Shown: positions 25,066-47,405 of the stretch, piece after piece | Numbering within the stretch: the stretch's first letter is position 1 | How the letters are laid out: the number at the start of each line of letters is the position of its first letter | Assembly: GCF_964213995.1 (NCBI RefSeq) | Contig: NC_135805.1 | Location: forward strand, 74,090,001 to 74,154,000 | DNA: 64,000 nucleotides | Reading direction: 5' to 3' | Origin: Mustelus asterias | Lineage: Eukaryota | Position numbers and translations under genes: made by a program | The notes under the pieces: model-generated | The model's database searches: none | Told to the model about the DNA's origin: nothing | Seen by the model: only the letters and a program-made list of their open reading frames with translations

Positions 25066-25383
25066 TTTTATTTATTTGTCACAAATAAGGCTTACATTAA
25101 CACTGCAATAAAGTTACTGTGAAATTCCCCTAGTCGCCACAGTCCAGCACCTGTTTGGGTCAATGCACCTAACCAGCATGTTTTTCAGAATGTGGAAGGA
25201 AACCGGAGCACCCGGAGGAAACCCATGCAGAAATGGGGAGAACGTGCAAACTCCACACAGTGACCCAAGCCAGGAATCGAACCTGGTACTGGTGCTGTGA
25301 AGCAGCAGTACTAACCACTGTGCTACCGGAACCTGGTACTGGTGCTGTGAAGCAGCAGTACTAACCACTGTGCTACCGTGCCC
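25066..25383 (-). mobile_element. HE1-like SINE with alternative (non-CR1) tail and 50-bp tandem duplication in the head
   Basis: Head gggcacggtagcacagtgg; perfect duplication 25279-25328 / 25329-25378; tail ...gcagtgttaatgtaagccttatttgtgacaaataaataaa. Confidence 0.88.
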
Positions 25384-25393
25384 TAAAGATCAT

Positions 25394-25466
25394 TGCCCGA
25401 ACAGGGACTTGAACCCTAGACCCTCAGATTAAAAGTCTGATGCTCTATCGACTGAGCTATTTGGGG
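25394..25466 (-). pseudogene. tRNA-Lys(TTT) copy, probably a pseudogene
   Basis: CCCCAAATAGCTCAGTCGATAGAGCATCAGACTTTTAATCTGAGGGTCTAGGGTTCAAGTCCCTGTTCGGGCA; 6 differences from canonical, two acceptor-stem mismatches, D-loop GG changed to GA. Confidence 0.9.
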
Positions 25467-25944
25467 AAACTTGTTAAACTTTAAGAAAAAAAATCATGTT
25501 TCTCTACTTTCAAGTAGTTAGGGCTAAATTATCCAATTGTATTGAATCACATTGTCTGATAAGAAATGGATCCTCTGTAGATTTGAGTACATGGCTGGCC
25601 ATCTGGATAGGTAAATAACCCAAAGTCTCTTAAAGGTACAATGGAGTTTTTGCAATCCTGAGAAACTATACCAATGTGACAGATAGTTAATGATTTACAG
25701 TAGCCACACTAAGCAACATAAAAGATTTATCTCTCTGAGTTAACAAAAGAGTTATAACACCAGAAGTCGTTTGATTTAACGACCTTTAAAACCAATACAC
25801 AGTTTATTGATGCAGGTTTAAAACCTCTTGTTTACATATGAATAAAGATTCCATATTTGTTCATTTTGAAATAGCAAAGCTATATTCTGGGAAAGAAACT
25901 GATATGGAAGCATTAATTGGAGACTAATTTTGTGATTTAAAACA

Positions 25945-26155
25945 ACCTGGCAGGGGTGAAACCATGATCACGTGGCAGGGGTGTGCTTCTCAGTCTTTTG
26001 GCTAAGATCAAATGTCAGATCAAACCCAAGATGGGGTGCAATGCCTTTTCTTGTCAGCTTGGATCTTGTATGTCTCTCTGCGAGGACAATGAATTGGATT
26101 CAATTTGAATCTGGTTTTTGGAGCAAGCAAGGAGATAGGTTTGGGTTTGCCCTGT
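25945..26155 (+). pseudogene. Chimeric U1/U2 snRNA-derived sequence
   Basis: 25945-25972 = U1 nt 7-34 (26/28); 25973-25983 repeats tggcaggggtg; 25985-26015 = U2 nt 4-34 (28/31); 26028-26155 is a diverged U2 body (cgaggacaat; tggtttttggagca Sm region). Confidence 0.85.
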
Positions 26156-26529
26156 GTGCTCTGCTCTTTGGCTTTGTAACTTTAAGAATGGAGTAAAATT
26201 AAGAAATGAAAACAACCTGCGCTTGATATGGAAAGCTTCATTAGAGAGGATCACTTTGATATTAACTAGAGGGGGCCACATTAATAAGAGGTAAAATTTG
26301 GTCCTATTGGTTTAATTGTAATGCAACTAATGCGGCCTTTAACTGAATTGTACATGCCAGTGCAAAACAGAATCAGTTTATATAATTCCATCTGAAGGAT
26401 ATGTGATAGAAAGATCAATCAGGCAGTGGAAGGAAAACAATCAATATTGTAAACTGTGTAAGGTATTTCAAAAGAAATTGAGCTGAAAGTTGAAATAGGG
26501 GGCATATTTTCAATAAATTTGACCAAATG

Positions 26530-26680
26530 GCAACAGCAGATTAAAACTGCTGGTGCTTAGAGGCAGATTGTCAAAGGAAACAACTAAAGGAAATGTTTCA
26601 GGAATTTGCAGATCTTTTTGGCAAAGATGTATATGATTGTGGTAAAACCAACCACAAGAGAATAAAATGCCTCCTGATCT
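26530..26680 (+). pseudogene. LTR-retroelement (Gypsy/retroviral) pol remnant just upstream of RT
   Basis: QRKQLKEMFQEFADLFGKDVYDCGKTNHKRIK matches the L..L..EF.D.F.K...DCG.T pre-RT pattern. Confidence 0.55.
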
Positions 26681-26710
26681 GAAACAAAAAGAATGAAGTC
26701 TGTGCAACAG

Positions 26711-27488
26711 TATAAATGCGAAGTGATGCATTTCGGTAGATCTAACGTAAGGGGGAGCTATACAATAAATGGCAGAACCATCAGGAGTATAGACACACAG
26801 AGGGACCTGGATGTACAAGTCCACAGATCCTTAAAGGTGGCAGCACAGGTGGAGAGGGTGGTGAAGAAGGCATATGGCATGCTTGCCTTTATTGGACGGG
26901 GCATAGAATATAAAAGTTGGCATATGAGGTTGCAGCTGTATAGAACGATGGTTAGGCCACATTTGGAATACTGCATCTAGTTCTGGTAGCCTACCAGAAG
27001 GACGTGGAGGCTTTGGAGAGAGTACAGAAAAGGTTTACCAGGATGTTGCCTGGTATGGAGGGTCTTAGCTATGAGGAGAGATTGGGTAAACTGGGGTTGT
27101 TCTCCCTGGAAAGGCGGAGGATGAGGGGCAACCTAATAGAGGTGTATAAAATTATGAAGGGTATAGATAAGGTGAACAGTGGGAAGCTTTTTCCCAGGTC
27201 GGAGGTGACGAACACAAGGGGTCACGGGTTCAAGGTGAGGGGGGCAAGGTTCAACACAGATGTCAGGGGGACGTATTTTACACAGAGGGTGGTGGGGGCC
27301 TGGAATGCACTGCCAAGCAAGGTGATTGAGGCGGACACGCTGGGATTATTTAAGACTTACCTAGATAGCCACATGAACAGACTGGGAATCGAGGGATACA
27401 AACGAATGGTCTAGTTGGGCACATGAGCGGCGCAGGCTTGGAGGGCCGAAGGGCCTGTTCCTGTGCTGTATTGTTCTTTGTTCTTTGT
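26711..27488 (+). mobile_element. 5'-truncated CR1 LINE, closely related to the 3206-6428 element
   Basis: ORFs 26693..26980 and 27004..27414; (ttctttg)n tail. Confidence 0.93.
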
Positions 27489-36823: not shown

Positions 36824-39800
36824 TGTAAAGATGCTCGTTCACCAGTTTAAGGAAAACACAACTCATTTATTTACAGGTTAAAACTATACAGATTCTTTCA
36901 TGGCTGCAATCAGCTCCTGAGATGGCTCTGAATCCAGAAACCCAAGCTTACCAAGGTGATTCCCCCACCTTGCTCCCTGATTGGCACCCAGGTCATGTGA
37001 CCCTTACTCTGCAGATTGATCCCTAAAGGGACAATCACCATATCCCTCCCCCTCCAAGTCCTTTTATACAAATGTCAATACTCAATTTACACATTAAATT
37101 CAACATTTAGCACATGAATTTAATCAATTATAAATTAAGTCTTTCAAGAGATCTCCAAATACTCTCTTTTTCTCAAATGGTGCATGTGTTTTCCGACGAT
37201 CCTTCCTTCTATGTCCACTTAATAAGACTGGGGTCTAGTTTTAGAGACAATGATTCCAGGGATCCAACTCGATCCACTGTGATAGCGTGTGATGTAGGAC
37301 ACTTCAGCTCAATAAAAAAAATCCAGTTAGACAATAAGCAGACCATTCATTGTGCTCATGAATGGACCAACATAATAAATATAGACTCGTGCCCATTGCT
37401 GGCCAGGCCATTCCCAAGGGTACAATGAGGCTGCAGCAGGCAACCTTTGTTGCAATTGCTACTGTTCACTGTGCTTGACAAGGATCTCGGCATTGGCATC
37501 AATGCCAGGCTACCAGACATAACTTCTGGCGATCATCTTTCAGATGCCCAGATGAGCGCTGTGTAATTCCATTGGAAGTGGTTGTCTGCCTGGTGGGATT
37601 CAACTACTCATGAGAATGATGTCATCCTGGCAACTCATTTTGTTCCTGCGGGTAATAAATGGTTTGATTTCTTCAGAAACTGGTTCAGTGGCCCAACCTG
37701 TAAGTATCATGTGTCTCATTTTAGACAAAAGTGGATCTCGACTGGTCCAGTATCTGATTTGCATCACCGAGATTGGAAACATGTTCAAAAATTCGATGCA
37801 TGACAATTTCCTTCAGCAGCTGTAACACTTTCATGGAAAGGTAGGCGGCTAAGTTCATTCGCATATTCTATGTCTGTTCCAGGTCGGTGCTTGAATGTAT
37901 ATCCATAGGTGGACAGAATTAATGGCCAATGTTGAATTCTTGCTGATATGATTGGCGGAATAGTCTTGTCTTCTTTAAAAAGACCCAAGGGTGGTTTGTG
38001 ATCAGAAACTATGACAAAGTGCTTACCATATAAGTAATGTTGGAATTTCTTGACACCAAAAACAATTGATAATCCTTCTTTCTCAATTTGCGAATAGCCT
38101 TTTTCGGCCTTTGAGAGGGTTCTTGAGGCACACTCTATTGGATTCTCAGATCTGTCGTCCATCTCATGGGCCAACATTGCACCAATGTCAAGTGGAGAGG
38201 TATCGCAGGTCAACACCAGTTCCTTAGACAGGTCGAAATGTACTAACAAGTCGAAGAATGCAGCAATTGTTTTACACTGTTAAAAGCTTCTTTTTGGGGA
38301 GTCTTCCAAGACCAACTCTGGTGTTTCTTTAGCAGAATATGCGTGACCAATAACATTGACAAGTTCAGTAAAAAACAGAAATCGCCCGTAGTAATTTACT
38401 ATTCCCAAAAGTGACTTGAGCTTAGATATGTTTTTGGGGGCTGGTGCCTCCATTATGGCTGTGACCTTGACATTGAACCCCAGATAGGTTACCTCAGTGG
38501 CTTGAAAAGTCCATTTCTCCTCCTTGAGGCAAACTCAAGCACTTGAAATCTCTTGAGCACCTCCTCTAGATGTTTGCTAGATGTTTGTCTCCTGTCCATC
38601 CAGTTATGAGAACATCATCAAATTATACCACAACAAACAGCCCCTGCAGCAGACTCTCCATTGTCCTTTGGAAAATTGCACATACTGAAGACTTACCAAA
38701 AGGCAGAAACATGTATTGGAATAACCCTTTGTGTATGTTTCACATGACAAAACCTTGGGAAACATTGTCTAATTGAGTTGCAGATATGTGTGACTCATAT
38801 CCAGCTTTGTATACGATTGACCTCCAGCCAGCTTTGCATACAGGTCTTCAATCTTCGGGATTGGATATTTATCCAACTTGGCAACCCAATTAATTGTCAT
38901 CTTGTAATCACCACAAATGTGGACTGTCTTGTCCAATTTCAGCACAGGAACTATGTGTGCTGCCCTTCCGAGAACTGAACTGGCTGGGTAATGCCCAGTT
39001 CTTCAAATCACTTTAATTCAGTATTTACTTTCTCCCGTAAAGCATATAGTACTGATCTCGCCCTATAGAATCGTGGGGTCGCCTCTGGATCCACATAGAT
39101 GTTCGCTTGCAGGCCTTTTATTTTGCCTAATTCGTCCTTGAAGATGCTCTCATATTTCTTCATCAGTTTGAGCAGTTCTCCTTCACGCTCTTGATCCAAT
39201 TTAATTTGATTTCCTTAAGCCAACCATGCCCGAAAAGGCTTGGTCCTACACCCGTCACTATGATCACTGGGAGTTAGGCACACTTCTGCCCATAGCTTAC
39301 AGGCACCATTGCAGTGCCCATTATTTTTATCCTTTCTCCACTATGGGTTGTTAACTTAGCCGCTATACACTTCAAATTCAATAGTGAACACCTTCTCTCA
39401 AGTACCAATATGTATGCTCACCTGTCACAGTAGCTGATGCCCCTGAATCAACATCCATCTTTACCTGAAGCATTACAGTAATAGGGGCTATGCTGCCTCC
39501 TTTTATACTAAACACTGAGTGAATATTTAAATCATTGGTGCGAGACTCGTCCACATTCTACCTTGGTGGTGGATTACTTAATCAGCTATTCGGTAGACCT
39601 GACTTGGCTCTGCACCTATGCCTTAAGTGGCCTCTCCTGTGACAAAAGAAACACTCAACCTCCTTATAATTGCAGGATTCAGGGGAATATTTACCTCCAC
39701 ATTGATAACATTCAACTTCAAACTTTGCTGATTGATTGTCTCTTCTAAATCTTCTTATCTTACTTATGGCTGAAATCGTTTCCCACCTTGCAGCTACTTC

Positions 39801-43037: not shown

Positions 43038-43718
43038 TTCTAAATTATCCCGAGGAACATAATGTATTAAGGTGAGATACATTTGCTGTTTGGTTAATTA
43101 CATTGCAAAGGGTGAGACAGAGATAGATAAAGTGAATTCAGCAGAGGAACCTGTACTATGGGAGTAAGTTTTGCAGACTATAGTTTATATTCCTGCATAC
43201 AAAGGTAGGTGTGATATTTGTTGATGTACATCATGGTTACTGTTGTCTCCTGGAACTCCTTCTTGGTTGCCTTTATGAGTCAGAGAAAAATTATTTCCTC
43301 TGTTGAATTGCCTTAGGATTTAAAAATAACTTTAATCTTTTCCATGTGTTTATAAAGCTGCTGATGAGTAAAGAGCATTGAGCAGTGTTACCAAATTGTT
43401 ACATGGTCGAACATAGCAGGTTCAATGGACAATCAGGTCATTTTTGTACGTTTGCAATTTCAGTATAAACAAAGATTGTTTAAAATATTATGTTTTTGCA
43501 CTGTATTTGAGACAACAAATACCAGAAATAATCCAGAAAGTATTAGTCATTAATATTAAAGTCCACATACATGATATAAAATTGAGAGTATTTTAATTAG
43601 AGGTCCTAATGCCCTAACTGTTCGCTTTGTTATTGCAACATTTACAACATTTGTTCAGTAGTCACTATAAAAACACACAGTATAAGCATTGTGTAATCAT
43701 GTAAGTGTACCTAAGTCT

Positions 43719-44296: not shown

Positions 44297-44349
44297 TAAA
44301 CGACCGAGATTTTAGTCATCTGTCCTGATATGGCTCAGCGTCCAATGTT

Positions 44350-45035
44350 GCTTTATAACGCCCCGGCACGAAATGCCTTGTTCGGGGGGGGGGGGGGGGG
44401 TTCAAGGCGCTAGATGGATACAAGTTGTTGTTGTTCTTTAGCAGGGGTCTGGAACCTTGGCCCGATCCTATTGTGACGCGAGGGCGTGGGAGCGCAGGCG
44501 CGGCGGATGGGGCGCAGTAACGGTCCGGGGGGAGGGGACGGCTGTGGGGGCGGCGGCAGCAGCAGCAGCAAGAGGAGGAGACGGTGATGGTGGAGGAGAG
44601 CAGCAACAACAACAACAGCAGCTCGGGAGAGGAGAGGAAGAGGTACCGTGTACCCGGGGTGTGTGTGTGAGGGAGAGAGAGAGAGTGGGGGGACAGACAG
44701 GGCCTTGCTCAGGTTAATGAGCTGCTGAAACCGACGAGCCGTCAGCGTAGCCGCCTTTGCTTCCCCGACCGGTGAGCCAGCACCTGCCTCCGCTCCCCCC
44801 GCCGGGAGAGGGGGGCCCGGCCGCTCGGACTGGTAACCGGCCCGGGGGGAGGTAGGTGGCGGATTGCGGCTGGGCCTGGACCCGGACCTGGACCTGGACC
44901 CGGACCCGGGCCCGCCCGGCCCCCGGAACTGCCGTCTCCCTGCCTGAAACGAGCAGTCCGCAAACCTCCGAGCCCTGAGCTGCAACGTTTAAAACTGCAA
45001 ATGAATATTTTTTGGGTGTGGATTCTCACCACGTA
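44350..45035 (+). promoter_or_regulatory. NCOA7: CpG-island promoter / first exon, probably of NCOA7
   Basis: Only extended GC/CpG-rich unique segment; GC boxes, G17 run, donor candidates AG|GTACCG (44643) and CG|GTGAGC (44772); 8 kb upstream of the NCOA7-like exon. Confidence 0.8.
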
Positions 45036-47109: not shown

Positions 47110-47405
47110 TGGGAGGAAGTGGTATTGTCGCTGGACTAGTAATCTAGAGACCCAGAGTAATGCTCTGGGGACTTGGGTTCAAATCCCACATGGCAGTTGG
47201 CCATGAAACCATTGTCAATTGTTGTAAAAACCCATCTGGATCACTAATGTCCTTTAGGGACATCCTTACCCGGTCTGGCCTACATGTGACTCCAGACCCA
47301 CAGCAATGTGGTTGGCTCTTAAATGTCCTGTGAAAATTAGGGATGGGGCAATAAATGCTGGCGCAGCCAGTGACACCCACAACCCCAAACGAATAGGAAA
47401 AAAAA
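47110..47405 (+). mobile_element. SacSINE1/DeuSINE-like tRNA-derived SINE (internally deleted)
   Basis: gtggtattgtcgctggactagtaatc...gggttcaaatccc; aaaacccatctggatcactaatgtcctttaggga; tail shared with LINEs at 450-1035 and 50500-51642. Confidence 0.75.

Follow-up and report, generated by a model that had tools for sequence, protein, structure and literature searches.

The window, i.e. the whole stretch of 64,000 nucleotides that was analysed, contains at positions 25950–26208 (259 nt) one copy of a high-copy, snRNA-derived SINE-like family. The family is very probably a non-autonomous, SINEU-like retroposon family derived from U2 snRNA, with the window copy as a U1-headed, neutrally decaying member. 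The initial annotation had described a U1-U1-U2-U2 chimera at this place. This proved to be real: Rfam matches to U1 and U2, a direct repeat of the U1 piece (25945–58 and 25970–83, 93% alike) and a flanking duplication all attest to it.

An snRNA chimera between short direct repeats

The pieces lay where they had been annotated (25945–26155), but the annotated end was too early (Table 1). The flanking 11-bp repeat, the A-rich tail and the extra U2 nt 25–30 piece at 26018–23 had been missed.

Table 1. Features of the element in the window.
Feature	Positions	Strand	Basis and remarks
Left copy of the 11-bp target-site duplication	25939–25949	+	T run in front (site of TT/AAAA type); its final 5 nt are also U1 nt 7–11
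U1 5' piece (nt 7–34)	25945–25972	+	Rfam U1, E = 0.029
Partial duplicate of the U1 piece (nt 10–20), joined at TGG	25973–25983	+	Direct-repeat family D5
U2 5' head (nt 4–34; in the master copy probably to nt 36)	25985–26017	+	Rfam U2; junction variants among loose ends
Repeat of U2 nt 25–30 and 4 additional letters, where the family body starts	26018–26027	+	U2 comparison; loose ends
Diverged U2 body from nt 23	26028–26198	+	Rfam, folding, contig depth
Body: hairpin in branch-point stem-loop (BSL) register	26027–26053
Body: stem IIb-like	26072–26087
Body: new hairpin over the Sm-like site	26091–26117
Body: decayed stem III/IV region
Decayed A-rich tail	26195–26208	+	Sequence; A-rich loose ends behind 26198 in 4/4 runs
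Right copy of the 11-bp target-site duplication	26209–26219	+	2/11 letters differ in runs X9 and X13

The direct repeat that brackets the element is exact and has no third occurrence within the 64-kb window. When random zone pairs at equal spacing were compared, 9 of ~20,000 reached 11 letters, and none did so with one real zone kept. The repeat starts with AAAA behind the T run, and an A-rich stretch lies ahead of its right copy; TT/AAAA is the L1-type target site consensus, according to the accessible part of PMC5322556. The two differences in the right copy in runs X9 and X13 are at 26213 and 26219, with a chance of 0.12–0.16 under neutral change at that divergence.

Since the last five letters of the left repeat copy are shared with U1, the simplest account of the missing U1 5' end is joining at this microhomology with the target site. 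The absence of U1 nt 1–6, which had been read as the disabling of a recognition element, would then be an ordinary 5' truncation. No second copy of the element was found within the window by blastn, nhmmer or motif search. Two ORFs run over the element, neither with a Pfam match.

Relationship to U1 and U2 snRNA

The best Rfam match of 25938–25974 was U1 (model positions 1–36, E = 0.029 over 4227 families). The Rfam U1 consensus is generic; the annotated 26/28 identity of the U1 5' piece to vertebrate U1 fits what we take to be the vertebrate sequence. For the U2 head (25985–26015), a count by eye against the Rfam consensus returned the same 28/31 as had been annotated, with differences at 25992, 25994 and 26012.

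The Rfam U2 model (RF00004) matched 25982–26201 with 36.9 bits and an E-value of 2.5e-5. The body by itself scored 14.3 bits, corresponding to an E-value of 0.64 over all 4227 families and of ~1.5e-4 with U2 as the only model. Run on the body alone, cmscan set its 5' part in a different register. The score for the whole U2 part stayed below the gathering score of 46. The U2 origin of the body is further supported by stem III-like loose ends behind 26136 (72 contigs in run X1, 71 in run X9), which by eye are closer to stem III in the Rfam consensus than the window copy is.

Compared with U2 nt 25–45, 8 of 21 letters of the body differ. Three of these changes (U34C, G36A and A38G) fall in the branch-recognition hexamer, in agreement with the annotated alteration of this sequence; whether they are the family state or decay of the window copy could be seen in part, from 40 of 163 difference rows. 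As had also been noted, no match resembling a proximal sequence element (PSE) occurs near the element, with up to three mismatches to what we take to be the PSE consensus. The element is not a functional U2, given a score under the gathering score, the altered hexamer, a missing stem IIa, a defective Sm site and the absence of a PSE-like match.

Abundance and junctions of the family

Contigs from four of 21 listed sequencing runs (X1, X3, X9 and X13; three labelled organisms and one unlabelled) were aligned to positions 25500–26700 at 80% likeness. The numbers of aligned contigs were 6880 for X1, 6267 for X3, 5993 for X9 and 5016 for X13. A 'shark metagenome' run with a small share (0.06) was left out of this comparison. 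Contig depth rose in the bin 25910–25950, was very high over 25992–26196 and fell beyond 26237 to a single contig in each run. In five body bins, the summed depth was ~1,300–20,000 times that of the right flank. Depth is not copy number, and real U2 genes and pseudogenes may contribute to it over the head; we claim only thousands of distinct variants. In all four runs, 26033–26073 stood out with a depth ~4 times that of the bins next to it. A head-to-tail duplication of 26018–26069 occurs in some copies, but such joints are too rare to account for this peak.

The right flank (26220–26711) was single-copy at 80% likeness, with one contig in each run and no empty, element-free site among these contigs, while the left flank (25500–25909) had no contig cover in any of the four runs. 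Our guess is that left-flank records were left out by a filter, possibly since such a contig would carry a tRNA-Lys gene. Long, unrelated AT-rich loose ends before 25995 were present in all four runs, as were the A-rich ones behind 26198 and joints that lead from 26194/26198 back to 25987–26035 via A-rich linkers, i.e. tandem copies. The consensus strings of loose ends had a low agreement of 0.39–0.72.

Among the 32 listed of 24,647 pieces, 28 were pieces of the element. They differed by 9.0–18.1% (mean 14.4%) from the window copy, as against 3.0, 5.5 and 6.6% for the orthologous flank. These pieces and 40 of 163 difference rows were too few to yield a family consensus. Four of the 28 span the U1-U2 junction (X3 records 17 and 18, X9 record 25, X13 record 9) and are 10.9–17.1% different, which is too far for an orthologue, so U1-headed pieces exist at other loci and the junction is not single-copy. 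One joint in X1 has a longer U1 piece before another U1 start, and one in X9 has an extra U2 head; these are single joints and may be related. The depth of the U1 bin was 1.5–2.7% of that of the next bin, in which short heads may be under-represented. U1 heads are thus a minority addition that is at least partly shared.

The junction between the U2 head and the U2 body gave a different picture. Five letters separate the head from the restart at 26018. They read TGTCA in the window, and each of the four runs has CATCA in its loose ends before 26015; other forms are CATTG in X3, TGTTG in X9 and X13 and a mixed TATTG in X1. These junction pentamers are plurality consensuses with an agreement of 0.40–0.48. 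They match the four CpG-decay products of one sequence, which points to a single master event: it looks as if one master junction, with the head running to nt 36 and the restart at nt 25, was inherited by the family. Of the serial recapture of snRNA 5' ends by template switching, as proposed in the initial annotation, a recurrent addition may apply to U1 heads only, whereas the U2 junction looks single and inherited.

Two other sources for such junctions were weighed. The copies might be the sum of independent chimeric U2/U1 pseudogenes, each formed by its own template switch. The mechanism is known in mammals, according to the accessible part of PMC4494074, and the joint in X1 does hold a different tandem U1 head. 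However, the diverged body finds matches at ≥80% in thousands of contigs, and in all four runs the head/body junction shows a single length and a single pattern of decay. We consider this origin very improbable overall, and for the U2 part it is largely refuted.

Alternatively, Keno or Utopia, which target U2, might have left the junction behind as a scar in a U2 gene that was amplified later. The head end and the body restart overlap by 12 nt and are shaped like a target-site duplication within U2. Yet the 3' flank of these elements starts at nt 39, whereas here the head ends at nt 34–36 and the restart is at nt 23–25; Utopia duplications in reptiles are 20 bp long in the part of PMC4640811 that is accessible. 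Moreover, no retroelement sequence lies between head and body, and the two are of different age. A scar of this kind is hardly credible, and the parallel with Keno and Utopia that had been drawn did not hold, as their site is U2 nt 38|39.

Age and decay

In each run, the right-flank contig starts inside the element, at 26171–26176, and hence the insertion is common to all four runs. The orthologous right flank differs by 0, 3.0, 5.5 and 6.6% across them. A copy-to-copy distance of 14% corresponds to ~7% from the master. The U2 head is 10% from U2, which is of the same order, whereas the body is ~38% from U2 over nt 25–45. This indicates that, at insertion, the heads were still almost new whereas the body had diverged earlier, and it upholds the two age layers described before, with the body farther from the snRNAs than the heads. 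The 259 nt of the element contain 2 CpG versus 30 TpG and 15 CpA, as expected for methylated, decaying DNA. The window copy itself is most likely inert.

RNA structure

The hairpin in BSL register had a z-score of −2.3 (3/200 shuffles). In U2, this register comprises the pairs 25–45, 28–42 and U27–U43 and an A–C bulge, according to the accessible part of PMC13019295. Despite 6 changes in the stem, 7/8 pairs are formed, versus 6/8 in the Rfam consensus. With random change from U2 as the null model, the probability was 0.017–0.068 for at least 7 pairs and 0.09–0.26 for at least 6; the reversed null gave 0.11–0.33. The pair probability of the hairpin was 0.01–0.4 in longer contexts, and it was mostly unformed in the whole element. 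From two tests on one copy, for a hairpin noticed after folding, selection on the BSL is suggested, at a significance too low for a claim. Stem IIa does not fold. Stem IIb, annotated together with the Sm-like site as roughly kept, does fold, but the Sm-like site is without its A and is enclosed in a 12-bp hairpin.

These structures bear on two further explanations. The copies might be mass retrocopies of a transcribed variant U2 gene under the master-gene model, i.e. with one or few loci bearing a genuine snRNA promoter, a U2-like RNA of its own constrained structure and dead-end copies. BC1/ID is an example of this model. The element is almost wholly U2-derived, a LINE-derived tail was not seen, and copies begin near U2 nt 3–5, as judged from the loose ends before 25995; the kept BSL register would also fit. 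Against it stand the weak BSL retention under both nulls and its low pair probability in context, the missing stem IIa, the paired Sm site without its A, and the U1-headed copies at several loci, which suggest secondary source copies. We judged this explanation unlikely. A further proposal is rather unlikely: that the master of an undescribed, independently evolved shark snRNA-SINE class is transcribed to this day as a U2-like RNA whose structure is under selection. Its BSL would be locked by compensatory changes, its hexamer altered and its Sm site buried, so that it would avoid the spliceosome although it relies on the snRNA promoter and the cap pathway.

Proposed origin of the family

For the SINEU-like family favoured here, we hypothesize a master copy that combined a diverged, near full-length U2 body with a nearly intact U2 5' head (nt 1–36), the restart at nt 25 having arisen through slippage or a template switch. 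Its RNA, with an A tail, may have served an L1/Tx1-type LINE enzyme as the template for target-primed reverse transcription at sites of the TT/AAAA type. Short target-site duplications, truncated 5' ends and dimers joined head to tail would be the result. In a minority lineage, a U1 5' piece would have been gained by template switching, followed by its partial duplication at TGG. The window copy may descend from this U1-headed lineage; it would have joined at the 5-nt microhomology, been inserted before the split of the organisms of the four runs and decayed neutrally since. Transcription may have started from an upstream promoter, either the snRNA promoter of the master gene or by read-through. 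LINE1 is reported in all vertebrate lineages in the accessible part of PMC4350176. No L1/Tx1 partner LINE was identified in the window, where the LINE ORF tested was CR1-like by its relatives.

Relation to crocodilian SINEU and other snRNA-derived sequences

The parallel with SINEU that had been suggested was well founded. The shark family has a U1/U2-derived 5' head, many dispersed copies with a shared structure, an A tail and an 11-bp duplication; it is short and non-coding, and no promoter of its own is evident. The likeness is one of mechanism. In the accessible part of Kojima 2015 (PMC4494074), SINEU-2 of crocodile and gharial consists of a 5' U1 and a 3' U2 part and has a poly-A tail as well as short target-site duplications. 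The shark element shares with it this order and these ends, as well as a length of <500 bp and the lack of an internal promoter, and possibly repeated 5' addition of U1. It differs in its host and in that U1 heads are a minority, the core being a U2 head plus a duplicated, diverged U2 body. As described in the same source, SINEU-3 is likewise U2-only, with a 32-bp 5' piece and tandem insertions. Unlike the shark element, which has an internal duplication and a single-copy right flank at 80% likeness, SINEU-3 has an internal deletion, and 90% of its insertions are in Mariner-N4_AMi. A preference for Mariner-N4 targets, with Tx1-Mar as the mobilising element, marks the crocodilian families. No Mariner was seen in the right flank of the window copy, and family-wide only AT-rich plurality flanks were visible. 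The partly duplicated U1 head of SINEU-1G is attributed to TGG in that text, as is the case at 25973.

Keno (Tx1) and Utopia are also tied to the 5' part of U2, but they are autonomous and insert at nt 38|39 (accessible part of PMC4640811), whereas the window element encodes nothing and has its junction elsewhere. Mammalian tailless and chimeric U2 retropseudogenes resemble the shark element in their L1-type target sites and 3'-truncated snRNA pieces (PMC5322556, in its accessible part). They are single events from normal snRNA, whereas the shark family propagates itself and has a shared derived body and a tail.

The accessible part of PMC4494074 reports no SINEU families outside crocodilians, the only group from which snRNA-headed SINEs had been described, and leaves their transcription as an open question. 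As the host here is a shark, an independent, second origin is likely. A literature search, with most subscription papers and Repbase Reports outside its reach, returned no paper on a shark snRNA-SINE, and the accessible parts of PMC7245038, PMC5499810, PMC5381603, PMC10468316 and PMC5786205 mention none. The family is new relative to the papers searched; Repbase or Dfam may hold it. If a distant vertebrate lineage holds another abundant family of this kind, the route from snRNA to SINE would be repeatable, down to details such as U1 on U2, head duplication mediated by TGG and tandem copies. Its thousands of copies are material for finding source loci and the promoter, and its insertions might serve as presence/absence markers for shark phylogeny.

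Genomic surroundings

At the gathering threshold, two tRNAs were the sole Rfam matches in the whole window. Dispersed tRNA genes are tRNA-Glu(CTC) at 7168–7241 (−), tRNA-Lys(TTT) at 25393–25467 (−) and tRNA-Ile(AAT) at 47124–47198 (+); the tRNA-Lys gene is on the strand opposite to the element and 470 bp upstream of it. A tRNA-headed SINE at 25066–25382 (−), which we take to resemble HE1 of elasmobranchs, has an internal 50-bp tandem duplication in its head (25280–25378). In the right flank, one short stretch resembles, by eye, the beginning of a reverse transcriptase from an old LTR element. A pol relic of such an element in the flanks is not claimed, as 0/12 frames had a Pfam match. A metagenome scan with a 22-nt motif gave one match, a bacterial coding sequence attributed to chance.

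No host gene was found near the element: of 135 non-repeat ORFs, 124 were scanned against Pfam, and the two with matches are both away from it. An LTR-retrotransposon RNase H relic was recognized at 37785–38279 (−; Pfam RT_RNaseH, E = 1.6e-29). A weak match to SNU71_RBD at 43368–43550 (+; E = 1.7e-4, under the cut-off) may stem from a gene for an RNA-binding protein, as an exon or a pseudogene piece. A CpG island at 44300–45000 holds a probable first coding exon on the + strand (ATG near 44587, donor near 44646) with CAG/CAA-type triplet runs.

The window is vertebrate and rich in LINE ORFs. Among the 120 best relatives listed for a LINE ORF, a catshark protein was the highest named animal match (63%), against 51% for a ray and 40–55% for bird and turtle proteins, which points indirectly to a shark host; relatives with higher identity are unnamed or filed under bacteria. 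At 76% and 73%, the closest named relatives of the LINE ORF at 4405–6462 (−; P0001, P0070) appear under the names of bacterial species, probably through contamination of those records with host DNA.
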